Shown here in pieces: positions 2,052 through 47,689 of a stretch of DNA of 64,000 bases (positions within the stretch are counted from its first letter, which is position 1; every line of letters begins with the position of its first letter). The stretch comes from Bacteroidota bacterium (GTDB lineage: Bacteria; Bacteroidota; Bacteroidia; Bacteroidales; JAAAOM01): positions 77,663-141,662 of the forward strand of contig JAAAOM010000003.1 in NCBI GenBank assembly GCA_009908855.1, read 5' to 3'. The notes beneath the pieces are model-generated. The model was not told where the DNA came from and did not search any database. It saw nothing but the letters and a program-made list of their open reading frames with translations. A program made the translations under genes and the position numbers.

Positions 2052-2073
2052 GTCAGATCAATTTTTCGTTTTT

Positions 2074-3453: not shown

Positions 3454-3456
3454 AAT

Positions 3457-4830: not shown

Positions 4831-4870
4831 AATTAATTATATCTCCATCTCATATAAAATTCAACAATGC

Positions 4871-5905: not shown

Positions 5906-5915
5906 GTGTGCCTGG

Positions 5916-7208: not shown

Positions 7209-7228
7209 AATCCGTCTTTTTTTAGGGT

Positions 7229-8197
7229 TTATAGATCCTTTATTATTTCTTGTGTATGATAGGATATGATAATGTCTGCTCCTGCCCTTTTCATGGAAGT
7301 CAGTAGTTCCGACACCAGACGTTTTTCATCAATCCAACCTTTTTGCGCCGCTGCTTTAACCATCGAAAATTCACCACTTACATTATAGGCAGCAACAGGC
7401 ACATTAATATTTTGTTTTACACGGGTGATAATGTCCAGATAACTCAATGCCGGCTTTACCATCACAATATCGGCTCCTTCAGTAATGTCCATTTCAATTT
7501 CGCGCATGGCCTCACGGCTATTGGCGGGGTCCATCTGATAGGTAGCCCGATTTCCGAATTGTGGTGCGCTTTCGGCTGCCTCACGAAAGGGGCCGTAGAA
7601 AGCCGATGAATATTTGGCTGCATAAGACATAATGGGAATGCCATGATAACCCTCCCGGTCCAATGATTGACGAATATGCTTTACACGCCCATCCATCATA
7701 TCGCTGGGCGCCACCATATCAACCCCTGCCCGTGCCAGTGATAATGACTGCTTCGACAATGTATTGAGGGTGACATCATTATCAACATCACCATCTATTA
7801 TGGTTCCGCAGTGGCCATGCGTGGTATACTCGCAATTGCAAACATCAGCAATAAGGTATAGATTTGGGATTTCTTTTTTCAGGGCACGAATGGCCTGCTG
7901 AACAATCCCGTCTTCCTGACAGGCTATTTCACCCGTTTCGTCTTTTTCTTCCGGAATACCAAATAATAAAACTGCCTGAACACCCATTTTTTCCAATTCA
8001 CTGCATTTTTCAACCAGTAAATCGACCGATAACTGGTAGTTACCCGGCATAGATGAGATAGCCTTTTTTACATTTGATCCGCTACGCACAAATAGTGGCA
8101 TAACCAGATCGTCACCAGATAATCTGTTTTCTCTTACCAGGTTTCGAATGGTTTCTGTTTTACGCAATCGACGTAATCGGGTAACCGGATATGTCAT
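7229..8197 (-). CDS. hemB: porphobilinogen synthase (ALA dehydratase)
   Basis: 322-aa ORF with [17 protein letters not shown] at the N-terminus, the [13 protein letters not shown] active-site lysine region and a Cys-rich metal site ([12 protein letters not shown]). Confidence 0.93.
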
Positions 8198-8232
8198 TTA
8201 ACTAATATGTTTTAGTTAATATTCAACTTCGT

Positions 8233-9003
8233 TTATTTAATATAGTATTCACAAATGCTATCGGCAATCCCTTTGGCATCAGACATACGTGCTGTAACAA
8301 CCGGAATCACACCCTGTTGTTCAATGGCAGTTGTGGTTGTATGCCCGATGCTGGCTATCCGTAATTTATTGGTAACCGACTCATCATCAATCAGGTTTTT
8401 TAAATTATCAAATCCCGAAGGACTTGTAAATATAATAAGGTCGTATTGATCATTCATCACCTGATCTAAAATTGTTTGATCTACCGCTTCGGGTTTTACT
8501 GTGTTGTACACATATACAACTTCAATATCAGCCTTGTGTTTAAGGTTATCCTTTAAAACAGATCGTGAAAGGTTACCGGTTGGCCATAATACCCGGGGAT
8601 TGGCATTTCCGAATTCCTTTTCAAGAGCATTCGCAAAATCGTTACTGGTATTCCCGGAATTTATGAAATCGGCTTTTAAATTGTATGCTTCAAGTTGTTT
8701 GGCAGTATGCTTACCTATGGTGGCCAATTTAAGGCTACGCGGCAGCTGCACCTGCCCGAATTCCTCTTTCAACAGATGAAAAAAATACCGGATACCATTC
8801 GGACTGGTGAAAATAATCCATTGATAATGTGAAAGGGGAAATATTTTGTTTTTGACTGAATGATCAATCTTTCGTTGTTGAATTTCAATCATGGGCATTT
8901 CCAACACTCGCCCCCCCATCTCATTAATATAGCCGGCCAATTCATCCGTTCTTCCGGGTGGCCTGGTTGAAATAAATATTTTATTTTCCAGCACTTTGTT
9001 CAT
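8233..9003 (-). CDS. hemD: uroporphyrinogen-III synthase
   Basis: 256-aa ORF with HEM4-like two-lobe organisation (IFTSPNG.. repeated as IIFTSPSG). Its ATG overlaps the hemC stop as TAATG at 9001..9005. Confidence 0.8.
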   Translation of the reverse strand: MNKVLENKIFISTRPPGRTDELAGYINEMGGRVLEMPMIEIQQRKIDHSVKNKIFPLSHYQWIIFTSPNGIRYFFHLLKEEFGQVQLPRSLKLATIGKHTAKQLEAYNLKADFINSGNTSNDFANALEKEFGNANPRVLWPTGNLSRSVLKDNLKHKADIEVVYVYNTVKPEAVDQTILDQVMNDQYDLIIFTSPSGFDNLKNLIDDESVTNKLRIASIGHTTTTAIEQQGVIPVVTARMSDAKGIADSICEYYIK

Positions 9004-9929
9004 TATGTCCTTATTTCATCTAAAATTTCTGCTCCTCCACGCGCCAACAATGACTCGGCCAAGGCAATTGCCAGGTCATTGGCTTTGGTGCGTTCGCCGC
9101 TAAATGTATCCTGAATATATTGATGGCCTTCCAGTGAGGCCACAAAACCATGAATAGTAAATTGTTCGTTCTGTAATTCGGTGTAACAACCAACGGGCAC
9201 CTGGCACCCGCCCATTAATGTTCGCATAAAACTACGCTCGGCACAAGCAGCAATCCATGTATCTTCGTGATGGAGCGCATTTAGAATTTCTTTGGTTTCC
9301 GCATCACCGGCATTTATTTCGATGGCTATTATCCCCTGACTCACAGCAGGCATGAATATCGACGGTTCAAGGATTTCAGTAATATAATTATCCAGGCCAA
9401 GCCTTTTGATCCCGGCTGCAGCCATTATCATGGCGTCACAATGGCCCTCCTCCATTTTTCGCAGTCGTGTATTAACATTTCCCCGTATGTCAACTATGTT
9501 AAATCGCCTGTTAATATTCAGTAATCCTGCTTTTCGCCTCAGGCTGGAAGTGGCGATGGTATGCTCCGGTGTCAGTTCATTGAGTTTAATATGATTCCGA
9601 CTAATAAGCGCATCCCTGCAATCCGCCCGGTCGAGTACGGCACCAATTTCAAAACCCGGTTCCAGCTCGGTTTGTAAATCCTTTAAACTATGCACAACCA
9701 TATCCACTTCGCCATTGGTAAGTGCAACCTCCAGTTCTTTTGTAAAAAGGCCTTTGTCACCAATTTTTGACAGGGCAACATCGACAATTTTATCGCCTTT
9801 GGTTTTAATCACTTTGGTCTCTATGAGGGTATCGTGAAATGCGTTTTCAAGGTGTTTTTTTACTTCGTTCGCCTGGAACAATGCCAGTTGACTTCCACGA
9901 GTACCGATTCTGATGTTTTTTTTGCTCAT
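9003..9929 (-). CDS. hemC: hydroxymethylbilane synthase (porphobilinogen deaminase)
   Basis: The ORF track gives 9003..9977, but the conserved N-terminus starts at MSKKNIRIGTRGSQLALFQA (ATG at 9929). That start also avoids overlap with hemA, which ends at 9946. Confidence 0.9.
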   Translation of the reverse strand: MSKKNIRIGTRGSQLALFQANEVKKHLENAFHDTLIETKVIKTKGDKIVDVALSKIGDKGLFTKELEVALTNGEVDMVVHSLKDLQTELEPGFEIGAVLDRADCRDALISRNHIKLNELTPEHTIATSSLRRKAGLLNINRRFNIVDIRGNVNTRLRKMEEGHCDAMIMAAAGIKRLGLDNYITEILEPSIFMPAVSQGIIAIEINAGDAETKEILNALHHEDTWIAACAERSFMRTLMGGCQVPVGCYTELQNEQFTIHGFVASLEGHQYIQDTFSGERTKANDLAIALAESLLARGGAEILDEIRT

Positions 9930-9945
9930 GTTGTTATCCCTGTTT

Positions 9946-11202
9946 TCAGGATACCTTGTCGGATAAAAACAGATCATTTATCGCTTTCAGGGAAGTTGAT
10001 GAGCTGTCGGTATGGGCCACCTGTTTAAGATTGCGAATAAACGTTCGAATATATTTCCGGGTAAGATTACCGGTATATTGCTCTATATATGCAGCCATTT
10101 CAGGATCACAATGATTCTTATAATTCAATAATTCTTCATCACGGATTTTTTGCATTTGAGCGGTAATGGTTTGAATAACCGGTCGCAGATTGCGGCTTTC
10201 AAGCCAGGTCATGTATTCAGCAACCATTTCCATGATTATTTCTTCGGCTGTAAGAATGCTGCTTTTACGCATTTCGGCTGTACCATTGACAATTTCCTGC
10301 AAAGCATCAACATCAAACAAATGTTTATCAGGAATACAGCCAATGGCCGGGTCGATGTTATTGGGCACTGACAGATCAATCAGTACCTGTGCATTCTTCG
10401 GGCCACCTTTGGCCTGAAAATGATCAGTTGAAATGATATATTCTTTTGCACCTGTTGTTACAAAAACGATATCGCTTGAAGATAAGTGCCTTGGGAATTG
10501 GTTGTAATCCACCACAATTGCATCGAATTCAGTGGCCAGTTTCTCAGCTTTGGCAGCTGTACGATTGGTTATTTTTAAATGTTGAACCCCTCTTTTTTTA
10601 AGATAGCGCATGGTCAATTCGGCTATTTCACCCGCGCCTATTATAAATACTTCTTTATCTTGAAGGTTACCCACTTTATTTTCGCATAAATCTATAGCCA
10701 CATAACTGATAGATGTTGCTCCCTGTTGAATTTCTGTTTCGGAACGAACCCGTTTGCTGGTTTCAAACGATTTTTGAAACAATCGCATGAGAATAGCATC
10801 GGTTAAATTGGCGTTTGTGGCAAATAAATAGGCATCTTTTACCTGTTTCACTATCTGAACTTCGCCCAGTACCATGGAATCGACTCCTGAGGTAACCCTG
10901 AATAGGTGATCTACAGCTTTGTCATCAACATATACGTAGAAATGTTTATGATATGATTCCTGAATTTGTTTATACTTATGCAAAAAATCAAGTATATCAC
11001 GTCGTATATACTGATTGCAAATATGTTCACATGAAAAATAAATCTCTGTTCTGTTGCAAGTTGAAATTACTACTGCTTCTTTAATACCGGTATGCTTTTG
11101 CAATCCTTCGGTAAAGGGTATTATTTCATCAGATGTTAATGAAAATTGCTGTCGAATATTTTGAGAAGCTGTTTTGTGGCTTATGCCCAAGGCTCCAACC
11201 AT
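9946..11202 (-). CDS. hemA: glutamyl-tRNA reductase
   Basis: 418-aa ORF with the catalytic-Cys motif VISTCNRTEIY, the NADPH-binding IIGAGEIAEL motif and a C-terminal dimerisation helix. It is the first gene of the hem cluster. Confidence 0.92.
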   Translation of the reverse strand: MVGALGISHKTASQNIRQQFSLTSDEIIPFTEGLQKHTGIKEAVVISTCNRTEIYFSCEHICNQYIRRDILDFLHKYKQIQESYHKHFYVYVDDKAVDHLFRVTSGVDSMVLGEVQIVKQVKDAYLFATNANLTDAILMRLFQKSFETSKRVRSETEIQQGATSISYVAIDLCENKVGNLQDKEVFIIGAGEIAELTMRYLKKRGVQHLKITNRTAAKAEKLATEFDAIVVDYNQFPRHLSSSDIVFVTTGAKEYIISTDHFQAKGGPKNAQVLIDLSVPNNIDPAIGCIPDKHLFDVDALQEIVNGTAEMRKSSILTAEEIIMEMVAEYMTWLESRNLRPVIQTITAQMQKIRDEELLNYKNHCDPEMAAYIEQYTGNLTRKYIRTFIRNLKQVAHTDSSSTSLKAINDLFLSDKVS

Positions 11203-17919: not shown

Positions 17920-20900
17920 TTATTTACTTAACAGATGTTCCATTTTTTGAATGAGCAGATTGAGACTTATGGGTTTGGCCAGGAAGTCGTTAAAACCGGC
18001 ATTTTTAATTTTTCTTTCGTCTTCACTCTGTGTAAAAGCAGTTTGCGCAATAACCGGTACATCCCGTTTTTCTCCACGAATCATCTGAAAAACCTGAAAA
18101 CCATCGTAATCCGGAAGTTTTATGTCAAGTAAAACGATATCAATGGTTTTCTTTTTTTCTTTTCTGATAATATCCATGGCTTCACTTCCATTCTTTGCCC
18201 ACAATAATTTTATATTGGTTTTTAAAAGGGCAAATTTGAGATATTTATAATTCGATTCTTCATCTTCAACGATTAAGGCTGTTTTATCCTGCCAGTTTTT
18301 TATTATGGAGATTTGTTGTTCGTTCTCATAATTGGTGTCACTATTTGATTCCTCTGCAACATTGCGTGGTAGCCAGAGAATAAATTCAGACCCCTTTTTC
18401 AATTCGGATGTAACATCTAAATCTCCTCCTAAAAGATTGGCAAGCTGTTTTGAAATTGATAAACCTAAGCCGGCACCGCGATACACTTTTTTAATACTAT
18501 GGTGTACGGTAGTAAACCGATCGAATACGGAGGGCAGGTATTCGGCTGAAATACCAATACCGGTATCTTTCACTGAAAGAAGTATCCGGTCATCATCAAC
18601 TGTGCAGGATACCGTTATTTCTCCCTCATCAGTGTATTTTATTGCATTGTCAATTAAATTGGATACAATTTGTTTAAGCCGTAAATCGTCGGTATAAAAT
18701 ATAGATGGTACATTTTGCGCAATATCGAGCTTCATTTGAATGGCAGGGTTGTTGTTGATTTGTTTGATGATGTGTTTCGAACAACTGCGTAAGTACCCTT
18801 CTTAAATCGCATTTGGTTGACGATATTTGAATGTTCTGTGATTCGATTTTGGAAATATCAATTAAGTCATTAAGCAACTTAAGCAACATTTCACCATTGG
18901 TCTGAATTTGTGTGACAAAAAGTTCTTTTTCATCTTGTTGAAATTCATCAGCACTTGCCAGTAAATCAGAAAAACCGAGTATGGCATTCATGGGTGTTCT
19001 GATTTCATGACTCATATTGGCCAGGAATGCCGATTTAAGCCGATCGGATTCTTCGGCTTTTTTAAGGGCTTTTTCCAGTTCTGAGGTTCTCTGTTCAATG
19101 AGTTTTTCCAAATTTTCACGGTGGTGCTGTAACTCGGTGTTTTTTGCCTGTATTTCCTGATTCTGATGTAGAATTTTTTCCTGACGACGTTGTAATAAAG
19201 TGTTTGCTTCTGTTAAATTGGTGGTTTGCAAATTTACCAGGCTCTTTAGTTTTTTCTGTTTAATTAACAGGTTTTGTGTACGCAATCGGTAAATAAACCA
19301 TATAAATGCAAGGGTAACCAACACAAGCAGTGCTTTAAACCATAAAGTTTGCCAATACGGAGGTGTAATGATAATTGTTAGTGATTTGCCTTACTCATTC
19401 CATACCCCGTCGTTGTTACTTCCTTTAACATGAAAATGGTAAGTGCCCGGGTTCAGATTGGTATAAGTAGCTGTTCTTTTATGTCCTGCTTCCGTCCATG
19501 TTTTATCAAATCCTTCGAGGTAATAGGCGTATTCGTTTTCTTCGGGAAAGCAATAGTTAAGTGCCGAAAATTCGAGACTGAAAACAGATTGTTTGTAACT
19601 TAACACAACGGTATCAGCATAAATAATATTTTTTTTCAGCGCTCCATCTGTTGTAATATCCAGTGATTCATTAAAAACTTTAAAGTCTGTAATAAATATT
19701 GGCGGGATAAAATCATTGTTGGAAATATGGGCAGGGTTAAAATAAATAAGGCCATTGTTGCTGCCAAAATACATGTGCCCGTTTTCATCCATAGAGGCTG
19801 TATTAGGATTAAATTGTTCTGCTTCCAGTCCATCAGTTATGCCATAAGCAGATACCGTATATTCGGTTTTATTGAACTTACAAATACCTTTTGATGTACT
19901 CAACCATAGATTATCCTCTTGGTCTTCCAGTATATCATACACAATATTACCGGATAATCCTTCGTGCGTTGTAAATTTCCGAAACCCGTCAATCGCAGGA
20001 TCAAACAGATTTAATCCGCCACCATGTGTACCTACCCAGAGCATATTATCTGAATCTTTATAGATCGACAAAACCCAGTTATGTCCCAGACTATGAGAAT
20101 TATCTTCTGCATGGAAGTAATGTTTTATAAGATTTCCGTCAATTGTATATTTTTTTAATCCGTTATATGTCCCCACCCAAATATTTTTTTGGTGCGGTAA
20201 AATACGCCAGGCAAATTCTTTTTGTTCTTCGGACAATATAACGAAAGTGCCTTTTATTATATCAAATAAAAGAGCCCCGTAATTTTTTGTAGCCAACCAT
20301 AGTTTATGGTCATCATGGTGCAAACTGATGTCCCAAACATTGAAATTCTTAGGATCAGTAATCCAATCAGGAATATATGATTTGAATGAACCGGTTGATG
20401 GAGAATAAGACACCAACCCCCTTCAAAACAGCCCAGCCATATATTATCGAAACGGTCTTGTTTAATGGAAAGCACTTTATCTACATTTCCGTATTTGGTT
20501 GAAATGGAACGGGTTGTATATAATTGTGCTTCTTTTGTGTTTTTATTATATTGATGAATGCCCTTTCCATCTGTTCCAACCCATAAATTATCCTGGTTGT
20601 CATGGAATGTAGATATCACATAGTCCATTTTCATTTCAAATAAAGCGGGCATTTGGCGGTTGTTAACGTGAAATTCTTTTATGGATTGATCGATGTAGTT
20701 TAAACCTCCGTTAAAGTTACCGATCCAGCGTGAACCGGATTTGTCCTGGTATGAAGTACGAATAATATTATTATTCAGTGAGTTCGGATCACCTTCATTA
20801 TACGTATAAGTTATGAAAATGCCATCCTCTGTGCAATATTCACTAATACCCCCATCCTGTGTACTGACCCATATATGATCGTTATCGGCTTTGTTAAAAG

Positions 20901-21789
20901 ACCAGATTATATTGCTCTCCAACATTGAATTACGGGTAGTATACTGATGCAATAATTTACCGTTCCCGTTCATTTCAAATATACCGTCACCATGTGTTCC
21001 GATCCAGTATTTGTCGGGGCCCAAATCCACGATAGCGGTTACAAAGACAGTTGTTTGTTCCATATCGGGTGTCAGATCCCTGCAATGCCATTTTTTTACA
21101 AACTCCATATTGTAGCATTCAACACCTTTATCTTTGGTTCCAATCCAAATATTGTTATATCTGTCAACCAGGGCAGTTTCATTATTATTGCTGGCCAGTG
21201 AGCTAAGGTCATCAGGATCGTGAGAAAGTTTCACAATACTTCCGTCATCTTTGTGCAGAATATAAATTCCCGTTGATTCGGTAACAATCAACAACCTGTT
21301 ATTTGTAATTTCCAGGATTTTTAATACCGTGTTCGGCGGCTCTGACTGAATATCAGCAACCAAATAAGATGTGAACCGGTCTATATCTCTTTCGTAACGA
21401 TTAAATCCATTAACTGTGCCTACCCACATTACAGAATCAGCATCCTCCATAATACAATGAATTGAATTGTCACTCAACCCATAATCGTTTTGGTTATAAA
21501 TAGTAACGTGGTATCCATCGTAACGATTTAACCCATCCCAGGTACCAAACCACAGAAAACCGTACACATCCTGATATATCGCTTCTACATTGTTGTTGGA
21601 TAAACCGTCTCTGATAGTAAATTTCTGAAATTTTTGATTTTTATGGGACTTACAGGTATATGCAGCCTTACTGTTTAAAGTAAACAGTATGCAAAAGATG
21701 ATAATAATTACCCGGGTATAGTGATAATTCATCATTATTAAATTCCAGCATGGATTATGCGAATAAAATATACGCAATAAATCAGACAT
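17920..21789 (-). pseudogene. disrupted hybrid sensor histidine kinase (periplasmic beta-propeller + Y_Y_Y, TM, HisKA, HATPase_c, receiver)
   Basis: Four consecutive ORF fragments reconstitute one roughly 1270-aa protein. Fragment 20257..21789 carries propeller repeats (WFGT/WIGT/WVGT). Fragment 19391..20416 carries more propeller repeats plus Y_Y_Y (TYHFHVKGSNNDGVWNE). Fragment 18674..19324 carries the TM helix, a coiled coil and HisKA ([18 protein letters not shown]). Fragment 17920..18735 carries HATPase (DNAIKYT, DTGIGI, GAGLGLSI) and the receiver (LIVEDEE...DIVLLDIKLPDYDG). The breaks are a frameshift at the C5/G5 run 20417..20421, an in-frame TAA at 19391..19393, and a frameshift within about 18770..18801. 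Confidence 0.8.
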
Positions 21790-21849
21790 TGTTGTAGATT
21801 TTTATTAAGAAGTTGTTAGAAACAATAAAACTTTTTAGCTTTGCGGCCA

Positions 21850-21935
21850 TTAATAACGGGGTGCCTTAATACAACGGGCTGAGATCATACCCATAAAACC
21901 TGATGCGGATAATGCCGCCGAAGGGAGCGTATGGT
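21850..21935 (+). promoter_or_regulatory. TPP (THI-box) riboswitch
   Basis: The sequence GGGGTGCC...GGCTGAGATCATACCC...AACCTGATGCGGATAATGCCGCCGAAGGGA matches the conserved THI-element core (CUGAGA, ACCUGAU, GGAUAAUGCC, AGGGA). It lies about 60 nt upstream of the TonB-dependent receptor start. Confidence 0.85.
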
Positions 21936-21993
21936 AAACGTAATGGAAAGTTCCCCGCTTTTCGCTTTGTTTAACCAATAATATTTTTTCATT

Positions 21994-24279
21994 ATGAAAC
22001 GTTTTTACATTTTTTTGGCTTTGGTTATGAGCTGTTTAAACGGTATCTCACAACAAGTATCAGGTGTGGTACTTAACAAACAATCCGGAGAACCATTAAT
22101 CGGGGCCAATGTTTATTATTCTGAAACCGGAAATGGTACTGTTACCAATGCTGAAGGCTACTTTTCAATGAATGTTCCCCGCTCTGCAGAGCATATAACC
22201 ATCAGTCATGTCGGGTTTAAAACAAAGAAAATTGCCATAAGCGATACAGTTAAAGCATACCTGGCTCCGGCTGTGGATTTGGAGCAAGTAATTATACAGG
22301 CTGTCCGTGCCGGCGATCAGGACCCTGTGACGCAAAGTACGGTTGAGCGCAAAGAACTGGAAAATGTGTATAATGGTGAGCAACCGATATTTTTTCTTGA
22401 GGACCTGACTCCCTCAATCATATCCTACTCCGAATCCGGAACTAAATTAGCCAACTATGGAAGTATGCGTTTGAGAGGTATTGGTCAGGAAAGAATTAAC
22501 ATGACACTGAACGGGGTTCCATTAAATGATATGATTGATCATGGCGTGTTCTTTTCCAATTTCACGGATATCGGTAACAGCTTCGAATCGGTACAGGTGC
22601 AGCGGGGAGTCGGAACCAGCAGCAACGGTGTGGCTTCCTATGCCGGATCAATTAATTTCGAATCTGTTAATATTGAAGACCGTGAACAGGGCGGACAACT
22701 GGAACTGGGACTTGGTTCTTTTAACACATACCGGTTAAATAGCAGTCTTTCCTCTGGTATGATTGATGATAAATGGTCATTTTATGGCAGCTATAGTCGC
22801 ATTGCTTCTGATGGTTTCAAGGATAATACCGGTACAAATGCATATTCGTTTTTCTTTTCAGGTGGTTATTTTGGTGAAAAAGATATGTTTAAGATAAACG
22901 CTTTCGATGCACGCTCCAAAAACGGATTGGGTTACAATTCTGAACCGGAAAGTGTATTAAAAAAAGATATAACTGCCAATTCGCTAAATGAGAATGACCA
23001 AGACGACTTCGGTCAACGCCTGATACAATTACAGCATACCCATATTTTCAACGATTTGTTCTCGACCAATGCTTCACTTTATTATGGAGGGGCATCGGGG
23101 GATTTTTTGTATACGTATCAGCATCCTGATGATACAACCGCCCTGGCACAGATTAACTATCCGCTTATAAATGACCACTATGGCCTTATGGTTAACGGGT
23201 TCCTGAATTATGGTCAATGGGAAATCAGTGTTGGTACCCATGGGTATATATTTAAGCGGGTAAATGAAGAATCATTTACACCGGATTTTGCCAATCCCTA
23301 TTATTTCGAAACTTCCGACAAAAAAGAGGTCAGTTGGTTTGGAAAAGTTCAATGGACCAATAGTACCTGGCGCATTTATGCCGATGCGCAAATGAGACAA
23401 ATGAACCTTTCCATTCACCCCGATTATGATGCTCCCGGCATGGAAGGCGTTGAACCTGAAGGGGAAATTACGAGAAACCGGACATTTATTAATCCCAACA
23501 TTGGTGCAAGTTATTCTTTCTCTGATCATTTATCGGTGTATGCATCCCTGGGGAGAATGGGACGCGAACCAACACGGATCGATATATTAGGTGGTTTTAG
23601 TTTATCTGCAGCCAATTTCGAGTTTGCGCAATCAGATGCTTTTAAGCCTGAGTATGTAAACGATTTGGAAGCAGGCATTAAATGGAATTCACAAATGTTG
23701 GCAGTTAATACAAACTTTTTCTATATGGATTTTGAGAATGAAATAGCGCCAATTGGTGAGGTATTGGCATTTGGCCTGCAAAAACGCCGAAATATCCCTA
23801 ATAGTTATCGTACAGGTGTTGAAATGGAGTGGAATTATCTACCCGTCCGCTTTATCGGTTTCCAGGGAAATCTGACCTATATGCAAAGTGAGATTGAAAC
23901 ATTCACATCCGGCACTGGTGAAACATACAATAATAAAACTCCCATACTCAGTCCTGAAATTATAGGACGGGGAAGAATAAATATATTTCCGGCAGAGAAT
24001 CTTTCGGTTAGATTCTCCGGGAATTATGTAGGCCAATCATTTCTGGAGCTTACCAATGATCCTGAATTTACGCTACCTGCTTATTTTACAATGGATGCCG
24101 CCATTGCCTATGAATTGGGAAGTATATCAATACGATTGGAAGCTAAGAATTTAAGTGATCAACATTATTATACGAATGGTTCACCATTGGATCTTGATTT
24201 TGACGGTACAAATGATGAACCCGGATATATTGTAAATGCCGGCAGAAATTATTTTTTATCAACAACATTTAAATTCTAG
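21994..24279 (+). CDS. TonB-dependent outer-membrane receptor, probably thiamine/thiamine-precursor uptake
   Basis: 761-aa ORF with a signal peptide, a CarboxypepD_reg-like N-domain (VSGVVLNKQSGEPLIGANVYY), a plug (RGIGQERINMTLNGVPLND) and a C-terminal barrel ending in aromatic F. It is preceded by the TPP riboswitch, and there is no SusD partner. Confidence 0.88.
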   Translation: MKRFYIFLALVMSCLNGISQQVSGVVLNKQSGEPLIGANVYYSETGNGTVTNAEGYFSMNVPRSAEHITISHVGFKTKKIAISDTVKAYLAPAVDLEQVIIQAVRAGDQDPVTQSTVERKELENVYNGEQPIFFLEDLTPSIISYSESGTKLANYGSMRLRGIGQERINMTLNGVPLNDMIDHGVFFSNFTDIGNSFESVQVQRGVGTSSNGVASYAGSINFESVNIEDREQGGQLELGLGSFNTYRLNSSLSSGMIDDKWSFYGSYSRIASDGFKDNTGTNAYSFFFSGGYFGEKDMFKINAFDARSKNGLGYNSEPESVLKKDITANSLNENDQDDFGQRLIQLQHTHIFNDLFSTNASLYYGGASGDFLYTYQHPDDTTALAQINYPLINDHYGLMVNGFLNYGQWEISVGTHGYIFKRVNEESFTPDFANPYYFETSDKKEVSWFGKVQWTNSTWRIYADAQMRQMNLSIHPDYDAPGMEGVEPEGEITRNRTFINPNIGASYSFSDHLSVYASLGRMGREPTRIDILGGFSLSAANFEFAQSDAFKPEYVNDLEAGIKWNSQMLAVNTNFFYMDFENEIAPIGEVLAFGLQKRRNIPNSYRTGVEMEWNYLPVRFIGFQGNLTYMQSEIETFTSGTGETYNNKTPILSPEIIGRGRINIFPAENLSVRFSGNYVGQSFLELTNDPEFTLPAYFTMDAAIAYELGSISIRLEAKNLSDQHYYTNGSPLDLDFDGTNDEPGYIVNAGRNYFLSTTFKF

Positions 24280-40243: not shown

Positions 40244-42244
40244 TTACTGAATACTTTTTACCACAAAGCTGATTAATTCATCAGCCGGATTTGGTTTTTC
40301 GAATGCTTTGGTGATATAAGATGGTTTATTTAAGAGTTTCCGATCGATCATTTCATTAATAGTATCAACATATTTCAAGGATGTTTTACCCACCAACAAC
40401 GAATCAAGTTTGCCATTTTCCTGATAATAATTAAGTATATCACGAAAACCACGCAGATATAAAAAATCTTTTGTAAATCCCCCTCCCCTATACACACGTG
40501 CCGTAAAATAAAAAGCCTTTTCGGCAGAAATATCAGCCAGGTCGCGGATGTAATAAAAAGTATCGCGGAAGCTTTTGCCTCTTAAAAGGCTTTGGATACA
40601 TAAAACCCTTAAGGCTAATTCTTTTAATCGTTCAATACTGAGATTACCTGAAAGCATTTCACTTAAAATAGCCAGCCCTTCCTGCGTTAATGTATTAACA
40701 GGCAATCCCAGCCGTAATATTTGCAAGGGTTGGTTCCGGGCATTGATGGTAGTTACCATGTGAACACCTATTTCATGTTCGCTCAATGCGCGCAATGCCC
40801 TTTCGGAATAATAAGTACCGCGTCGGAGCCTTATGGTTTTTTTGTTGTTAAGCACCAATACTTTGGCTACAATGTTTTTGGCAATTTCCACTTTACAGTC
40901 AAAGCCATAGTCGGCAACTTCCTTACGGAAATAGTTCCTGGCTGCTTCCACCGATATATTTTCTTCTACATCGCCAACATCATGATTACCGGCATGCATT
41001 ATGAATTGGGCATTACTCACATCATTCTCTGATGGCTCACCAAAATAACGCAATGAATTATATACGAATTTATCGGTACCGATGGTGGCAATCAGGTCTA
41101 CCTTATCAGCATAGGCATCAATCACATCCTTATACATATTTTGGATGTTGATGTCACTAATTTGTTCCACCTTTATATTGTACAGTTTACGTTTGAATTC
41201 GAAGGGGTTAATAACAAGCTGACGATACCTAAACTCGGGATTGACATTGAATTTCGACTGAAAGAACCGTTTTTTTTCCTGTTCCAGGTTAACAGGGTTG
41301 ATAAAATTCAATATTTCAAAATTGCGTACCAATTGAAATAATTCCCGGTCTACTTTCATGGTTTCTTTATCGGGTGCCTGAGAAAGCAGGTATGGCGCTT
41401 TAACGTTGCGGTCTTTAATAATATACCGATTGAAATATTTGGAAAGATTAATTATGGACTGACGCATACCAACCGAAATTGCATCTACCACCACGGGATA
41501 GAATACGCCCTGCTCTTCATCGCCATATACCTTCTTAACTTCAGTGGGTAATATCAGGGTGTTTCGGAAATTTTGTTGCGCAAATTCGGCCAGGTACCCG
41601 CGGCCATAGAAAATATCGTTTATGGCTACGGTAGTTTCAATATCAGGAATTTCGATTTTTCGCAGTTCAGCAAACCACTTTTTTATGGCTTTGTTGTATC
41701 GCCTGGTATCAATCAGATCAGTACCAATATTAATGACCGGTAATATTCGATTGTATCGCTTATAGTTAAATGAATGTATATCAAATACCAAACAGCTGTT
41801 AAAAGTTTCTTCAAGGTGCTTGATTAAAGCATATACTACTTTATAAAAATTATGATGTTTGGACAGCGATGTTTCTTTCTGTTTTTTTGTTAATGGCTTC
41901 TTCCACACCTGTTTACCCCATGCTTCGCCATAAATTGCATCGGCAGGATTTCGATTCAGGTCATATTCATATCGCGTATCATTCCCCACCAACCGAATGG
42001 GAAAACCACTTATAAACTGATCTGTTTTCGGGTCTTCTTCATATAACCGTTCGTTTTCATTTAATAAACAATTACCATGCAGCTCCTCCCGGAAATTATG
42101 TCCGGCATGTATGGCCGCGCATACATAAGGTACATAATCATCAATAAATATACTGAATGATTCGTCTTCGGTAGTTGCCTGAAAAGTTTTATGCTGATTG
42201 ATCCGTTTCAGGATATCATCGATAGATAGCTTAAGCATTTTCAA
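40244..42244 (-). CDS. two-domain hydrolase: N-formylglutamate-amidohydrolase-like N-domain fused to a DUF1704 / QEGLA-motif (MATCAP-family) metallocarboxypeptidase-like C-domain
   Basis: 666-aa ORF. The N-half carries FGase-like motifs (AAIHAGHNF, TRYEYDLNRNP, LVFDIHSF). The C-half carries HEIGVH (HExxxH) followed about 30 aa later by LTQEGLA. The start overlaps the upstream ATP-grasp gene by 14 nt. Confidence 0.75.
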   Translation of the reverse strand: MKMLKLSIDDILKRINQHKTFQATTEDESFSIFIDDYVPYVCAAIHAGHNFREELHGNCLLNENERLYEEDPKTDQFISGFPIRLVGNDTRYEYDLNRNPADAIYGEAWGKQVWKKPLTKKQKETSLSKHHNFYKVVYALIKHLEETFNSCLVFDIHSFNYKRYNRILPVINIGTDLIDTRRYNKAIKKWFAELRKIEIPDIETTVAINDIFYGRGYLAEFAQQNFRNTLILPTEVKKVYGDEEQGVFYPVVVDAISVGMRQSIINLSKYFNRYIIKDRNVKAPYLLSQAPDKETMKVDRELFQLVRNFEILNFINPVNLEQEKKRFFQSKFNVNPEFRYRQLVINPFEFKRKLYNIKVEQISDINIQNMYKDVIDAYADKVDLIATIGTDKFVYNSLRYFGEPSENDVSNAQFIMHAGNHDVGDVEENISVEAARNYFRKEVADYGFDCKVEIAKNIVAKVLVLNNKKTIRLRRGTYYSERALRALSEHEIGVHMVTTINARNQPLQILRLGLPVNTLTQEGLAILSEMLSGNLSIERLKELALRVLCIQSLLRGKSFRDTFYYIRDLADISAEKAFYFTARVYRGGGFTKDFLYLRGFRDILNYYQENGKLDSLLVGKTSLKYVDTINEMIDRKLLNKPSYITKAFEKPNPADELISFVVKSIQ

Positions 42245-43259
42245 TTATATTACGGAAACTACGCTTACGGTCAATGGCCGATTCTTTATGTTGCACAACA
42301 TTCTCGGCAAAATCAATAATCTGTTTTTGCAGTTTTACGCGGTTGAATTTATTGATGCGGGTAATTCCTCCCGGACTGCAAACATTTATTTCAATGAGTT
42401 TACCATTGATTATATCCAGCCCTACAAAATACAACCCGTCTGATACTAACTTGGAACCGATATTCCTGCATAGTTTTCTTTCGGCTTTGGTTAAATTATG
42501 TTTCACGGCATTGCCGCCTGCATGAATATTTGAACGTACATCATCATCGGCCGGCACCCGGCGGTATGCACCAATGGGTTCACCGTTGAGCATCAATACG
42601 CGTACATCACCTTTTTCAGCTCCTTCAACATAGTCCTGTAAAATCACATAATTACTGTCCTTTTTGCCGGATATATAAAAATCGAGAATGGAATTGATAT
42701 TTTGGGTGGCATTTTTCTCCAACACTATCACACCGCTTCCGCCAAAACCATCTAAAGGCTTTAATATCATCCATTTGGAGTCAGATTCCTTAATGATCTT
42801 TTTCAAATAATCTTTATTCTTGGATACATGCGTAGCAGGAATCATTTCATGTTCCGGATCATTAAAACATGCCGGATACAGTTTATTGCTTGCTTTACGC
42901 AGGCCATCAATATCGTTTATGATAAAAGTATCGTCCTTGACAGAATCCAGGAAATTTAACATAATCGGATCAAGCGGTGGATTGGTGCGAACAAATATCA
43001 CATCAAAACCCGATAACGGGAACATCTGCTCCTTAAACCTCGCTTTTTTATAAAATGTGGTGATGGTAGGAGATATTTTTTCATCTTTCAGTAGCATTTT
43101 TACAAATGCATAAGCATTGTTTCCCCGTATGGTTAAATTATTGGGATATACCACACCAACCTTATGCCCACGCAAAGCGGCCTCGTGCACCATACGTAAA
43201 CTTGAATCGGTCTCAGGTTCAATTACTTCCCACGGATATAAAATAAAGCAAATATTCAT
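42231..43259 (-). CDS. GshB-like ATP-grasp ligase (glutathione-synthetase family)
   Basis: The ORF is open to 43355, but the conserved N-terminus begins at MNICFILYPW (ATG at 43259). It is colinear with E. coli GshB motifs (DSS, DVIFVRTNPPLD, NKLYPACF, ILKPLDGFGGSGV, GDVRVLMLNGEP, RSNIHAGG, YFVGLDIINGKLIEINVCSPGG). Confidence 0.85.
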   Translation of the reverse strand: MNICFILYPWEVIEPETDSSLRMVHEAALRGHKVGVVYPNNLTIRGNNAYAFVKMLLKDEKISPTITTFYKKARFKEQMFPLSGFDVIFVRTNPPLDPIMLNFLDSVKDDTFIINDIDGLRKASNKLYPACFNDPEHEMIPATHVSKNKDYLKKIIKESDSKWMILKPLDGFGGSGVIVLEKNATQNINSILDFYISGKKDSNYVILQDYVEGAEKGDVRVLMLNGEPIGAYRRVPADDDVRSNIHAGGNAVKHNLTKAERKLCRNIGSKLVSDGLYFVGLDIINGKLIEINVCSPGGITRINKFNRVKLQKQIIDFAENVVQHKESAIDRKRSFRNIIENA

Positions 43260-43327
43260 TACGCCAGTTGTTTTTTTGCGGTTGCTAATGTCGTTTAATA
43301 AAATTGAATTTACATTTAATTTGCCAT

Positions 43328-43370
43328 TCAATTTGCCATTCAATTTGCCATTCAATTTGAATAAAATTTA
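43328..43370. repeat. 12-nt tandem repeat, about 3.6 copies (AATTTGCCATTC)
   Basis: Direct reading gives aatttgccattc three times, then aatttga. It lies 69 nt upstream of the probable ATP-grasp start. If translated it would read (NGKL)3. Confidence 0.9.
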
Positions 43371-43615: not shown

Positions 43616-43666
43616 ATGAGGCTGGCTATAAAATTTTTAATCTGATACTTTATTAGCCAGCCTCAT
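43616..43666. repeat. 13-bp perfect inverted repeat with a 25-nt spacer
   Basis: ATGAGGCTGGCTA (43616..43628) is the exact reverse complement of TAGCCAGCCTCAT (43654..43666). It lies about 100 nt downstream of the MtaC-like gene, and no U-tract follows on either strand. Confidence 0.8.
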
Positions 43667-43768: not shown

Positions 43769-44440
43769 TTAGGCTGCCAGTAATTTATTCAGGCTGGATA
43801 CGGCTCCTTGCGGATCAGGAGAATATGCATCAGCACTAATTTTCTCACAAAATTCCTGATTAACAGGTGCTCCGCCAATTATAATTTTCGTATCAGGAGA
43901 AGCCGCCTTGATTTCCCCGACAATTTTCTCCATACTTACCATTGTAGTAGTAAGCAAAGCCGATAAACCGACAAAGCAACCGGGATATTGTTTAATGGTT
44001 TCAATAAAGGATTCAGCTGATACATCAACGCCTAAATCAACTACATTCCATCCGTTTCCTTCCACCATCATGGAAACCAGATTTTTGCCTATATCATGCA
44101 AATCACCCGAGACAGTGCCTATAACAAATGTTCCTTTTTGTTGAACCGACCCGTCCTGAAAATAAGGTTTAATATGCAACATGGCTTTGCTCATGGCCTT
44201 GGCAGACATAAGCATCTGCGGAACAAAAATTTTATTTTGCGTAAATTTATTACCGACTTTTTCCATTGCAGCAATCATGCCATCGGAAAGTATTTCCGAA
44301 GGTTTAATTCCGCTATCCAGGGCTGATTTCACCAGTTCATCTGCTCCATCCTGTCCTTTCATATCAGGTGGAAAGGGACTGTTTTTATCAATTTTACCAA
44401 ACTCAATACAATGCGCGATTTGTTCAATTATTTTTTCCAT
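43769..44440 (-). CDS. mtaC: corrinoid (B12)-binding protein, MtaC/MtbC-like
   Basis: 223-aa ORF with an N-terminal helical cap domain plus a Rossmann B12-binding domain. It carries the DxHxxG signature (GDLHDIGKN), SxL (LSALLTTT) and GG (IIIGGAPV). Confidence 0.85.
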   Translation of the reverse strand: MEKIIEQIAHCIEFGKIDKNSPFPPDMKGQDGADELVKSALDSGIKPSEILSDGMIAAMEKVGNKFTQNKIFVPQMLMSAKAMSKAMLHIKPYFQDGSVQQKGTFVIGTVSGDLHDIGKNLVSMMVEGNGWNVVDLGVDVSAESFIETIKQYPGCFVGLSALLTTTMVSMEKIVGEIKAASPDTKIIIGGAPVNQEFCEKISADAYSPDPQGAVSSLNKLLAA

Positions 44441-44499
44441 GACAATTTATTTATTCAATTATTTAATTTACTAATAATTTATGATTTTATTGCTTTAAT

Positions 44500-45885
44500 T
44501 TAGGTGATACCATACTCATTAAGCAAAATTTTATTTTGATCTAAAGTTGGTACTACCAGGTCAATAAACTTCTCCTCATTAAACGGGATTGCTTCTAATT
44601 CTGAACGTAACATGTCAATCCAGGTAAGTTCCATGTCATTTAATGTTAGTTTATCCTGTTTATAGGCCTTGTCTATAATTTCAACTGATTTCAGACATCC
44701 TAATACGCAGGCTTCGATATAATTATTGCCCTTTACGATTTCCTTTGAAATTTCAATTACGCTTTCAGGTGCAAGTACCAATGCCTGCGGATCGTAAGAG
44801 ATATCAGAATTCACCATTAGTTCCTGTAATTGTGTGCAGGCATCGTGGCCTTTATGTACAGCCTGGTTCATTAAACGACAATCGTACTCAAGCTGTTCAA
44901 GATAGACGGTAGGTGCAAAACCAGCCAACAGTTTAATGTTCTGAACCGATTCGTTGCTCCATAAATCGCAACAAGCGGCTGCTATGTTACCTACAGGACT
45001 TAAATGTGCACATGCGGCAGTTTTACCTTCCATCGAAATGGGTATCCCGGCAATAGCCTTTAAGAAGGGGCCTTCATAACCACAGTCTTTATCCGGCCCG
45101 GTAGCACCGTGCTCAACAGCCACCAGCGTTCTTACCACCGTTGCTACGCGAGCAACAGCCGCAAAAATTTTTGGTATATATTTTTTTTCGGCAAGAACCA
45201 TTGCTGTATTTCCAAATCCGCATGCCGTATCACCACCCATCAATACACCTGTTTTACCGGCAACGTCAGCAATTTTATCCCATAAAAAATGCATGTCACG
45301 AACCCCCAGAACTGCCTGACTGAATATGAATTGTGTCATATTACACATCATCAGTGCGTCATCAGAAATTTCCTTGCCACCGGTGCTTTCGATACTCAGC
45401 AGATTACCACCTGCTTTCGCCCCTTCTTCAAACAACTGCATCATCGGATCAAGATATGCACCGGTACGTTGCCTCGGAGGGCGGTCAAATTCGCGTAAAT
45501 CATTTGGTGTAAGGCGAATCTCAGTAGGCAACTGATGCTTTTGATAGTATTCTTCACAAATTTCATTCATGGTTTTTACAACTCCCACACCTATATCCGG
45601 GTATTTGGTCATTTCAATAACCGTTTCCAGTTCTAAAACCACTCCTTGGCTATATAAGTCCTTAGCCCTTTCAAGTGCACCGGTTGTAATTTGACGATAA
45701 TGTTCAATAACCTGTTCTTTAGAATCCGGGGAGACTTCAATAGAAGGAAGGGTGAAATTCAGTTCCGGGTAAACCCGGCCTCCGCCAATAACCAATCCGC
45801 GTTTGGTTGTTACAGGATGTGGTGTATTACCAAAAATCAGGTCATTGGCATTTTTTATAGCTAAATCACGATATTTCATATTCAA
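44500..45885 (-). CDS. mtaB: MtaB-family methanol:corrinoid methyltransferase homologue
   Basis: 461-aa ORF. Long colinear similarity to Methanosarcina MtaB as I recall it: LLSIESTGGKE, GGDTACGFGNTAM, GPDKDCGYEG, KAIAGIPISMEGKTAACAH, CCDLWSNESV. The Glu/Cys/Cys positions matching the MtaB zinc ligands appear conserved. Confidence 0.8.
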   Translation of the reverse strand: MNMKYRDLAIKNANDLIFGNTPHPVTTKRGLVIGGGRVYPELNFTLPSIEVSPDSKEQVIEHYRQITTGALERAKDLYSQGVVLELETVIEMTKYPDIGVGVVKTMNEICEEYYQKHQLPTEIRLTPNDLREFDRPPRQRTGAYLDPMMQLFEEGAKAGGNLLSIESTGGKEISDDALMMCNMTQFIFSQAVLGVRDMHFLWDKIADVAGKTGVLMGGDTACGFGNTAMVLAEKKYIPKIFAAVARVATVVRTLVAVEHGATGPDKDCGYEGPFLKAIAGIPISMEGKTAACAHLSPVGNIAAACCDLWSNESVQNIKLLAGFAPTVYLEQLEYDCRLMNQAVHKGHDACTQLQELMVNSDISYDPQALVLAPESVIEISKEIVKGNNYIEACVLGCLKSVEIIDKAYKQDKLTLNDMELTWIDMLRSELEAIPFNEEKFIDLVVPTLDQNKILLNEYGIT

Positions 45886-45894
45886 ATGTATTAA

Positions 45895-46929
45895 TTATGT
45901 TTCACGTACTAAAAGTTCAGATAAAATGACTAATTGTTTACTGGTTAGTTCAGGGTCGTTATGGATGATTTGTACAATTCTGCGGGCCATCTCGGCATAG
46001 TTGCAGTCTAATACTGTTAAAGGCGGATTGCAATACCTTGTAATCTCTGTATTGCCGTATGAGACAATGGCAACATCGTCAGGTACTTTAATACGCCAGC
46101 TTTGTAATCTTCCTAAAATCCGGATTGACCGTGTATCCTGTAATGATAATATGCCGGTTATATGATTGTCCTGAATATATGCTTTGTTTATACGGTTTAG
46201 GTTGGTATTAATAAATAATTTGCGTTGTGGCTGCCTGGAAGCAATAATCTGCCATGCCGTATTTTCAATTAATTCCATAATCATGTGTTTTCCTTGCCAG
46301 GGTTCATCAACCGAGAGTAATATATTTCCGGAGTTAGCACTAAAAAGATAATTGATGGCGCGCTTTATACCCAGGTCATAACTTTGTACGGCATATTCAA
46401 AATACGAACCGGCCATGGTATAATCGGCCAGCACAAGTTTAGACTTTTCAAGTGAAAGGTGTCGGTAAAACTCGGCGGTGAGCATTTCATTATAGTTAGG
46501 AACCACAATGATAGCCTCAAAGCCCTGATTAATAAGATTCCCGACCAGACGCATTTCTTCAGCCGCATTATTATAATGCAGAAAATATTGCAACTTACGC
46601 TCATACTGCTCGGCCAGGTTGTTTATTTCAGAAATTAATTGTTCAATATTAGAAGAATAAAAGGGTATGACCATACCCCAAATTTTAATTACTTTTTTTA
46701 CGGACAAAACGTAAGTACCTTTGCCTGCCCGTGATACCACAAGATTTTCATCGATAAGAGATTTAATTACTTTTTTAGCCGTTTCACGCGATACCTTATG
46801 CCGGTCCATTATACGATTTATGGAATCAATGCGTGAACCGGCTTCATATTCCTGAGCAATAATCTTATTCCGGTAGTAATCGGTAAGACGTTTATAGATA
46901 GGTATGTAATCCTGAAATTCCAATGGCAT
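45895..46929 (-). CDS. AraR-like transcriptional regulator (GntR wHTH + LacI-type sugar-binding domain)
   Basis: 344-aa ORF. The N-terminal GntR HTH reads SINRIMDRHKVSRETAKKVIKSLIDENLVVSRAGKGTYV. The C-terminal periplasmic-binding-protein-like domain reads VPDDVAIVSYGNTEI...PPLTVLD. It ends 9 nt upstream of the mtaB-like start. Confidence 0.8.
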   Translation of the reverse strand: MPLEFQDYIPIYKRLTDYYRNKIIAQEYEAGSRIDSINRIMDRHKVSRETAKKVIKSLIDENLVVSRAGKGTYVLSVKKVIKIWGMVIPFYSSNIEQLISEINNLAEQYERKLQYFLHYNNAAEEMRLVGNLINQGFEAIIVVPNYNEMLTAEFYRHLSLEKSKLVLADYTMAGSYFEYAVQSYDLGIKRAINYLFSANSGNILLSVDEPWQGKHMIMELIENTAWQIIASRQPQRKLFINTNLNRINKAYIQDNHITGILSLQDTRSIRILGRLQSWRIKVPDDVAIVSYGNTEITRYCNPPLTVLDCNYAEMARRIVQIIHNDPELTSKQLVILSELLVRET

Positions 46930-47011
46930 TATTTTATGGTTCCAAGATAGTCAGTATAACCATAAATACCATCACATTACATCACGGTTTATTATAAATC
47001 ATCACATTTTC

Positions 47012-47689
47012 TTATTTATGATGTGAGGAATGATGCGTGGTGGCATGTTTTATTAACCTACAGCCTGCCAATAATTCGATAAAAAGGTCATACACATCAT
47101 CCGAAGGCAAATAATTGGCATTCAGGCCCAATTTTAAATCAAACCCGTTTTTGGCTGCCAAACTAACACCAAGCGGTACCTGCAAGGCAACTTTTTTCCG
47201 CATAGCACCAACTGATAATCCCGAGTAAGGTTTTATAATGCCTAATTTCACTGAATGCAAGTAGTATCTCATACCAACAAAAAAACCATTTCCGCCGTCT
47301 TCTGTATTCTTCACCACGTCGATTGCATAGTTTATGGATGGTTTAGTGAAATAATTCAGGTGGAATTTATAGAAAAAACTTCCTCCGGTAAGGTCCATCA
47401 TCATACCAGCACTTATGCCATGCCTGTCGGGTATTCGTTTTGACCTGGCGCTTACAAGAACAACATCTCCATTGTTATAGATAATCTTATCAATGTTTTT
47501 GGTATCCTCAATGACTATGATGGTATCTTTGGCATCTAAAAACCGATATTTAACCTGTTTATCGGACTTTTCGGTAATTTTAACCAATTTTTCTTCGCCT
47601 GTTTTAAAATAGATTGTGTCTTGTGAGTAACTCATATTTGCCATGAGCATAAAGCCGGCAAACACGCTCCATACGCCCCAAAATTTCAT
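47012..47689 (-). CDS. hypothetical secreted protein, possible small beta-barrel, with a His-rich C-terminal tail
   Basis: 225-aa ORF with a signal peptide (FMLMANMSYSQ), an alternating hydrophobic pattern in the C-half, and a tail reading KHATTHHSSHHK. Confidence 0.5.
   Translation of the reverse strand: MKFWGVWSVFAGFMLMANMSYSQDTIYFKTGEEKLVKITEKSDKQVKYRFLDAKDTIIVIEDTKNIDKIIYNNGDVVLVSARSKRIPDRHGISAGMMMDLTGGSFFYKFHLNYFTKPSINYAIDVVKNTEDGGNGFFVGMRYYLHSVKLGIIKPYSGLSVGAMRKKVALQVPLGVSLAAKNGFDLKLGLNANYLPSDDVYDLFIELLAGCRLIKHATTHHSSHHK

Follow-up and report, generated by a model that had tools for sequence, protein, structure and literature searches.

Corrinoid-dependent methanol methyltransferase systems comprise a methanol:corrinoid methyltransferase (MT1, MtaB), a corrinoid protein (CP, MtaC), a second methyltransferase (MT2, MtaA) that unloads the methylated CP, and a reductive activase. 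In Acetobacterium woodii, Eubacterium callanderi and Moorella the methanol-specific MT1 is MtaB (PMC13391211). The MtaA of acetogens, a protein of about 30 kDa, methylates tetrahydrofolate (THF) and feeds the Wood-Ljungdahl pathway, and usually one mtaABC cluster is present; the CP and MT2 can serve several MT1s, and solitary mtaA genes occur, with the activase encoded elsewhere in the genome (PMC13391211). MtaB binds its zinc by one Glu and two Cys (PMC6257451), and genes for COG0523 proteins cluster with mtaA/B/C and ramM in Methanosarcina and Clostridium (PMC2770081). Here, we describe an mtaB-mtaC pair in a 64-kb stretch of DNA (64,000 nt, positions 77,663 to 141,662 of the 144-kb contig JAAAOM010000003.1, assembly GCA_009908855.1) from a member of the Bacteroidota. 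This whole stretch is called the window in the following, and all coordinates refer to it.

The pair is the second and third gene of a group of three co-directional genes on the minus strand, regulator, mtaB and mtaC, which form one operon (Table 1). Only 9 nt separate the stop codon of the regulator gene from the TTG that opens the mtaB reading frame, and 59 nt lie between mtaB and mtaC. We consider it likely that this operon encodes the methyl-donor half (MT1/CP) of a corrinoid-dependent methanol methyltransferase system whose MT2 and activase are encoded elsewhere. The zinc enzyme MtaB (Glu166/Cys222/Cys268) would polarise the C-O bond of methanol and pass the methyl cation to the Co(I) corrinoid, which would be bound His-on (His115) in MtaC, to yield CH3-Co(III)-MtaC. 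Control of the operon would be exerted through a promoter-proximal array of three helically phased TGTGATG repeats. Elsewhere in the genome, as in most relatives, we would expect an MT2 that unloads CH3-MtaC, a reductive activase to rescue the Co(II) form, and a metallochaperone of the COG0523 type. For the unloading step, an MtaA-like zinc methyltransferase of the URO-D family would be the likeliest candidate, with a MetH-type homocysteine domain as the alternative.

A first-pass annotation, made from the sequence without database searches, had read the mtaB product as an MtaB-type enzyme with the zinc ligands of the Methanosarcina protein, and its neighbour as a His-on corrinoid protein. Profile searches and alignments bear this out. 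The MtaB protein matches Pfam PF12176 from end to end with 526.5 bits (cut-off 25, E 8e-158; residues 4-450 on positions 3-449 of a profile of 460), and it contains all of the motifs quoted in that annotation (LLSIESTGGKE, GGDTACGFGNTAM, GPDKDCGYEG, MEGKTAACAH and CCDLWSNESV). Against the MtaB structure of Methanosarcina barkeri (2I2X_A) it reaches 279 bits with 37 % identity over 435 residues. E166, C222 and C268 align with positions 164, 220 and 269 of this chain, the zinc-ligand positions of M. barkeri MtaB. The three columns are invariant in 12 close relatives and kept in nearly every cluster of the family. While the reading frame yields 461 aa from the TTG, the database gene call has 459 aa and begins two codons further in, with an ATG at 45879, which is the probable start. 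The nearest named cluster is the MtaB of Eubacterium maltosivorans with 47 % identity. From this identity to an acetogen MtaB, together with the conserved ligands, we infer that methanol is the substrate; databases already label these proteins as methanol-corrinoid methyltransferases.

MtaC shows the domain pair of a corrinoid protein (B12-binding_2, PF02607, 64.8 bits; B12-binding, PF02310, 86.5 bits) and the complete His-on signature, D113-x-H115-x-x-G118, S160-x-L162 and G189-G190. Its best match of known structure is the Moorella corrinoid protein 1Y80 (169 bits), followed at a distance by M. barkeri MtaC (2I2X_B, 95 bits). It stays below all NCBIfam equivalog cut-offs, with 176.9 versus 215.3 bits for TIGR02370 and 118-126 versus 420-450 bits for the MtaC models.

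Behind mtaC, a gap of 413 nt precedes the next gene. It holds a stable hairpin (Table 1) that is not followed by a T-run. The hairpin is a possible terminator, and together with the gap it probably marks the end of the operon. Scans for terminators and for sigma-70 consensus promoters gave nothing exceeding chance. Directly downstream of the operon lies a glutathione-synthetase-like gene of the ATP-grasp type, which overlaps a gene for a fused N-formylglutamate-amidohydrolase and MATCAP/QEGLA-motif protein; the long open reading frame (ORF) of the ATP-grasp gene opens with a threefold NGKL repeat that is probably located 5' of the true start. On the other side, the promoter region of the operon is adjoined by a gene for a 225-aa protein with a signal-like N-terminus, without Pfam match, and with a His-rich C-terminus.

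Table 1. Features of the window, and gene families found beside mtaB in the 81 surveyed loci (the 80 best related loci and the window).
Feature	Position in window	Strand	Loci (of 81)	Characteristics
Regulator, first gene of the operon	45895-46929	(-)		GntR winged helix-turn-helix (HTH) + LacI/PBP1-type effector domain
MtaB-family methanol:corrinoid methyltransferase (MT1)	44500-45885	(-)		461 aa from TTG; full-length Pfam match
MtaC-type His-on corrinoid protein	43769-44440	(-)		223 aa; four-helix cap + Rossmann B12 domain
Candidate operator, three phased direct repeats (T/C)GTGATG	46970-47006	(-)		GTGATG at 47000-47005, 46980-46985 and 46970-46975; offsets 0/+20/+30
Putative Bacteroidota-type -7 element TATCTTG	46943-46949	(-)		14 nt upstream of the regulator ATG
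Hairpin, possible operon terminator	43618-43664	(-)		about 105 nt 3' of the mtaC stop; RNA fold -25.2 kcal/mol, z = -5.65, 0/200 shuffles as stable
ATP-grasp gene and overlapping fusion gene	40244-43355	(-)		ATP-grasp protein NF009110, 436 bits
225-aa protein	47012-47689	(-)		His-rich C-terminus HATTHHSSHHK
Heme biosynthesis cluster	17-11202	(-)		ten genes
Hybrid two-component sensor	17920-21789	(-)		four consecutive/overlapping ORFs
TPP riboswitch	21847-21943	(+)		60 bits, above gathering score
CarboxypepD_reg TonB-dependent receptor gene	21994-24279			directly 3' of the riboswitch
AraC-type regulator, divergently transcribed			38	cupin + HTH_18
RACo/AcsV-type reductive activase			33	Fer2 + Raco_middle + RACo_C_ter
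CobW/ZigA-type GTPase			33	COG0523
URO-D protein (c5)			25	closest to MtaA/CmuA family, 129-135 bits
Met_synt_B12 protein (Act)			19	MetH activation-domain-like
Regulator family of the window			15	
Second URO-D-like family			8	
Stand-alone homocysteine S-methyltransferase domain			5	MetH/YitJ-type

All ORFs of at least 120 aa in the window were scanned with Pfam, and no RACo/RamA, CobW, MetH-like, pterin-binding or URO-D/MtaA-like gene was found among them except HemE. MT1, CP, MT2 and activase are not encoded together in these 64 kb. The remark of the first-pass annotation that the pair has no MT2 or activase neighbour is therefore accurate for the window. The single URO-D gene (4871-5905) was considered as a hidden MtaA and rejected: it matches URO-D over its full length with 331 bits and is situated within a hemA-C-D-B-L-E-N-Y-F-H cluster.

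The same annotation had taken the missing partners for a peculiarity of this locus, and here the relatives lead to a different view. We called and clustered the ORFs of the 81 loci and identified recurrent neighbours by Pfam and NCBIfam; linkage was counted only where the cassette has 5 kb or more of flanking sequence in each direction, which applies to 45 loci. The mtaC gene adjoins mtaB in 60 of the 81 loci, and the commonest gene order is AraC< MtaC> (URO-D>) MtaB> CobW> RACo> (Act>). Among the URO-D proteins adjoining MtaB, 14 out of 18 keep the H-x-C...C zinc motif of MtaA. Partner cassettes thus exist in relatives, and yet the unlinked state is the commoner one: an adjacent MT2 candidate is missing in 28 of the 45 loci, an adjacent RACo gene in 24, and seven loci, the window included, carry a bare MtaB with or without MtaC. 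A Draconibacterium metagenome-assembled genome (MAG) likewise has a bare regulator-MtaB-MtaC unit, in a neighbourhood unrelated to that of the window. The local absence of partners is real, yet ordinary for this clade, because linkage is loose within it, as it is in acetogens. The first-pass annotation had itself raised the case that the module might have a wide distribution in the clade and share synteny with a known pathway; this largely applies, in the form of the MtaC-(URO-D)-MtaB-CobW-RACo-(MetH-activation-like) cassettes.

With the acetogen systems (A. woodii, E. callanderi/limosum/maltosivorans, Moorella thermoacetica) the locus shares a bacterial host and the nearest named MtaB, a short MtaC (222-223 aa) with the Moorella protein as best solved match and, in the relatives of the operon, an ATP-dependent activase of the RACo/odmC type instead of the archaeal RamA, as well as components that can be scattered. 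It differs in the MT2: no small MT2 recurs among the neighbour families of at least four loci (the pterin-binding type was not profile-tested), and the candidates in the clade are URO-D/MtaA-like. Moreover, the clade hosts are saccharolytic, often facultative organisms of the Bacteroidia type, with regulators of the GntR/PBP1 or AraC type. For Bacteroidota hosts, the Wood-Ljungdahl pathway is expected to be absent. With the methanogen system of M. barkeri (2I2X) the locus has in common the fold family, the Glu/Cys/Cys zinc site and the His-on corrinoid partner and, in its relatives, an MT2 candidate of the URO-D/MtaA type with HxC...C and a COG0523 GTPase as neighbour. In contrast, the MtaB identity of 37 % goes along with a score under the NCBIfam equivalog cut-off, M. 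barkeri MtaC is longer (258 aa), and the methyl acceptor and activase there are coenzyme M and RamA/RamM, neither of which is expected in Bacteroidota. On all sequence criteria applied, the pair falls into the MtaB and corrinoid-protein families, but it is not the methanogen equivalog. It is nearest to the acetogen system in sequence and activase type and to the methanogen system in the type of its MT2 candidate, while host physiology, regulators and loose linkage set it apart from both.

The regulator has the architecture that the first-pass annotation had compared with AraR, an N-terminal GntR domain (PF00392, 39 bits, aa 12-74) and a LacI/GalR-type effector domain (Peripla_BP_3, PF13377, 51 bits, aa 252-343), and in this respect the comparison holds. 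Bacillus subtilis AraR (3TB6) likewise combines an N-terminal GntR winged HTH with a C-terminal effector domain of the LacI/GalR-type PBP1 fold. In sequence, however, the window protein has only a very distant relation to AraR (31 bits for the effector domain, residues 116-309) and to the LacI-type protein 3CLK (36 bits); its family accompanies mta and not sugar genes in 15 loci, and the candidate operator consists of three direct repeats of TGTGATG and is not a palindrome. Orthologues of 42-52 % identity are found directly upstream of mtaB or mtaC in all 14 other loci. Because of this invariable position, the family appears to be a dedicated regulator of mta operons, which alternates between genomes with the AraC-type regulator.

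Wherever the sequence is intact, a tandem pair TGTGATG-N3-TGTGATG precedes the regulator gene, with a single occurrence per locus in the 14 other regulator-bearing loci. Three loci without an adjacent regulator (L028, L045, L055) have the pair immediately 5' of mtaB, and the 1.3 Mb of retrieved sequence contain no further copy; by chance, 0.12 would be expected in the window. A third repeat stands at a distance of exactly 20 nt on the upstream side of the pair; it is perfect in 7 of 18 sequences (window included) and degenerate in most others. The offsets of the three copies place them all on one face of the helix. A search with up to two mismatches found no second operator site before other genes. 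In most regulator-type loci, the last repeat is followed, some 21-27 nt downstream, by a TAtcTTG or TATATTG-like element, which is similar to the Bacteroidota -7 box and may be a promoter element. The repeats most likely constitute the binding site of the co-encoded GntR/PBP1 regulator, and the operon would then be autoregulated.

A word-indexed search returned more than 6,000 MtaB homologues, of which the best 120 are all about 458 aa long and 65-72 % identical to the window protein (names include Draconibacterium, Cyclobacteriaceae and Bacteroidota). A scan of one genome per species yielded relatives in at least 208 genomes, which are distributed over Bacteroidota, Ignavibacteria and Fibrobacterota. 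The best 80 of the 208 are 62-69 % identical, with carriers in Prolixibacteraceae, Draconibacterium, Mariniphaga, Tangfeifania, Sunxiuqinia indica, Paludibacter, Lentimicrobium, Saprospiraceae, Cytophagales and Roseivirgaceae; further carriers belong to Ignavibacteria/Melioribacter and Fibrobacterota/Chitinispirillaceae. Cultured carriers include Sunxiuqinia and Draconibacterium. The MtaB family as a whole is small: an exhaustive HMMER search of 1.84 billion cluster representatives gave 623 clusters at 50 % identity, about 20 of them full-length. One cluster, P0155, is a fusion protein of 1238 aa whose C-terminal part (residues 785-1237) is the MtaB domain. Of the other clusters, bacterial ones are nearest to the clade (E. 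maltosivorans, 47 %; Armatimonadota/Chthonomonadales, 44-46 %), and the archaeal ones (Hodarchaeota, Methanomethylophilus, Methanobrevibacter, Methanosphaera, M. barkeri) are 28-38 % identical. Literature searches turned up no publication on MtaBC in Bacteroidota, and in a paddy-soil preprint the bacterial mtaB transcripts come solely from Desulfobacterota, Bacillota and one unclassified MAG.

In a neighbour-joining (NJ) tree, the MtaBs of Bacteroidota, Ignavibacteria and Fibrobacterota form a single group, recovered as monophyletic in all 200 bootstraps; they are nested among bacterial clusters, and their sister group is not resolved. Codon-usage distances of mtaB (0.121), the regulator gene (0.125) and mtaC (0.155) compare with a window mean of 0.124 +/- 0.026, and the GC content at third codon positions (GC3) of all three genes is within the window spread. 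The first-pass annotation had proposed that the module may be laterally acquired; we see no sign of a recent acquisition, because codon usage and GC3 are native and MtaB belongs to a widespread monophyletic clade. The data leave room for a transfer in ancient times, into an ancestor that these phyla had in common. In Prolixibacteraceae-type genomes (L034, L041, L051, L053, L059, L078, L079), the mta cassette occupies a conserved spot inside a branched-chain amino-acid cluster, flanked by an AraC regulator and ilvC on one side and by ilvN/ilvB/ilvD on the other. An ilvC gene is also found near the regulator-type unit of Draconibacterium L007. This conserved position suggests vertical inheritance with swapping of the regulator.

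Several points weigh against reading the operon as the donor half of a methanol system. Neither an MT2 nor an activase is demonstrated for the host genome, of which we view 64 kb of a 144-kb contig. The MtaB score of 405.5 bits against NCBIfam NF040651 (MtaB_Meth) is far under the 720-bit cut-off for methanogen equivalogs, and methanol specificity would be an extrapolation for this MtaB clade. GntR-family proteins usually bind palindromes and not direct repeats, so the TGTGATG array could belong to another factor. Finally, the host encodes O2-dependent heme enzymes (HemF, HemY-type), and Co(I) chemistry would require efficient reactivation in such a background.

Among the alternatives, the one that survives best concerns the fate of the methyl group. 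It could be passed directly to homocysteine, with MtaB and MtaC replacing the folate and cobalamin modules of MetH and with separate homocysteine (Hcy) and activation (Act) proteins, in an anabolic role. We regard this as unlikely for the window operon, although some relatives are organised in just this manner. A complete Bacteroidales chromosome (L022) carries a tight operon MtaB-MtaC-HcyMT-Act (HcyMT, the Hcy S-methyltransferase) in which the first three genes are spaced by 34 nt and 32 nt and the last two overlap. MtaB here takes the place of the folate module in what is otherwise the set of MetH modules. Four further loci (L018, L027, L075, L124) also link MtaB/MtaC to an Hcy S-methyltransferase domain and to Met_synt_B12-like proteins. 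The stand-alone Hcy domain matches the N-terminal half of YitJ with 266 bits and MetH residues 3-314 with 179 bits, and MtaC of the window itself reaches 129 bits against the B12 region of MetH. In the NJ tree, the window MtaB groups with that of L022 and with that of L001, whose operon reads MtaB-MtaC-Act. A Cys/Met pyridoxal-phosphate enzyme flanks the cassette in four loci, and an activation-domain protein is found in 19 of the 81. This last protein, however, may serve corrinoid reactivation alone, and the Hcy domain is present in only 5 of the 81 MtaB loci. The window has no Hcy, folate or activation module, and its MtaB shares no sequence relationship with the folate module. Seen from the other side, only one of 80 metagenomic Hcy-domain loci (L124) has MtaB nearby, the usual partner of the Hcy domain being URO-D-like, and our literature searches found no paper on such a pathway. 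For a minority of genomes, a methanol-to-homocysteine route appears plausible. The wider proposal is that the MtaB/MtaC of Bacteroidota, Ignavibacteria and Fibrobacterota do not serve catabolic methylotrophy but represent the methyl-donating half of a methionine synthase that is modular and independent of folate; a stand-alone MetH-type Hcy domain would pass the methyl group from CH3-Co(III)-MtaC to homocysteine, and repair would fall to RACo or to an activation domain of the MetH type. In such a system the window operon would be the regulated donor half, under a previously undescribed GntR/PBP1 regulator that reads the TGTGATG array. We hold this to be doubtful.

In the metagenomic loci L084-L163 (e.g., L087, L088, L094), a cassette of MtaC-like CP, URO-D-like protein, HcyMT, CobW and Act is recurrent, which looks like a split methionine synthase with a URO-D-family protein replacing the folate module. 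The URO-D proteins of this context are about 31 % identical to those adjoining MtaB, and most of them are without the Cys motif. A single function of the URO-D-like family c5 in both contexts, methyl transfer from corrinoid to THF, was considered and rejected: the two sets should not be equated, because of this low identity and the difference in the HxC...C motif. Taken together, the parts behave like interchangeable modules.

The methyl donor is the subject of a second alternative, an idea of the first-pass annotation: the MtaB homologue might use an O-methylated sugar, or another methyl ether or ester, which would suit a sugar-type regulator. The effector domain does have the PBP1/LacI fold typical of sugar sensors, and the clade is uncharacterised and 47 % identical to the nearest cluster with experimentally linked MtaBs. 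Nevertheless, we judge this quite improbable. Methanol is the only known substrate of the MtaB family, and O-demethylase MT1s include URO-D-type enzymes. The zinc triad and the overall length are fully conserved, and the same MtaB is found more often with an AraC-type regulator (38 of 81 loci) than with the regulator family of the window (15 of 81), which is dedicated to mta and similar to AraR at a mere 31 bits. A Pfam census of 137 proteins flanking the cassettes in relatives gave 155 families, none of them in more than six proteins. Carbohydrate-active genes are scattered in these flanks (GH9 in three cases; fucosidase, glucuronyl esterase and UxuA in two each), but no SusC/D, pectinesterase, transporter or sugar-catabolic set recurs among the 137 proteins. 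In the window, the roughly 5 kb that flank the operon on each side contain no adjacent SusC/SusD pair with glycoside hydrolases or esterases of the kind expected in a polysaccharide utilization locus. Known O-demethylase MT1s, MtvB among them, are of other families than MtaB (PMC13391211). Methanol released from pectin is plausible as an environmental source, and the sequence holds no pointer to pectin.

That the pair is a decaying or orphan remnant which lost MT2, CobW and activase and no longer supports methyl transfer in its host is very improbable: the window form is indeed minimal (7 of 45 well-flanked loci, when many relatives have cassettes of five to seven genes) and no partner gene lies within 64 kb, but none of the three ORFs is interrupted or truncated and no catalytic residue is missing, scattered partner genes are normal for such systems, and the bare regulator-MtaB-MtaC unit is maintained with its operator in distinct lineages and contexts (L007/L083, L009, L020, L054), which argues for purifying selection.

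The remainder of the window tells something about the host, which is a member of the Bacteroidia. Marks of Bacteroidota are a Por_Secre_tail protein (sorting signal of the type IX secretion system), a CarboxypepD_reg TonB receptor and a Reg_prop/Y_Y_Y sensor. The glucose-6-phosphate dehydrogenase is 67-69 % identical to Dysgonomonas and Prevotella proteins, and there is no close named relative. The heme biosynthesis cluster encodes GluTR, HemC, HemD, HemB, HemL, HemE, a HemN-type radical SAM protein, a HemY-type oxidase, the O2-dependent HemF and ferrochelatase. Since O2-dependent and O2-independent coproporphyrinogen oxidases are encoded together, a facultative lifestyle is suggested, which bears on an O2-sensitive Co(I) system. 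The TonB receptor gene is located directly behind a thiamine pyrophosphate (TPP) riboswitch and thus probably serves the uptake of thiamine or a thiamine precursor. The hybrid two-component sensor (Reg_prop/Y_Y_Y propeller, HisKA, HATPase_c, receiver) is broken into several ORFs and may be a frameshifted pseudogene or reflect sequencing errors.

Implementing all these results, the picture of a foreign, partner-less and sugar-linked mta pair is not supported. The points of interest are instead a large neglected clade, a newly seen operator with its regulator, and the question of the methyl acceptor. Methanol is produced in abundance when the cell walls of plants and algae decay, and its anaerobic consumption is usually ascribed to methanogens, acetogens and a few sulfate reducers. 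A coherent MtaB clade with its own partner set and two alternative dedicated regulators points to unrecognised corrinoid-dependent methanol users among common polysaccharide degraders. Reads of mtaB in metagenomes and metatranscriptomes should accordingly not be taken automatically as evidence of methanogenesis. The conserved operator offers a handle on the regulon and on the inducing signal, and the occasional joining of the module with MetH-type parts makes the destination of the methyl group directly testable.

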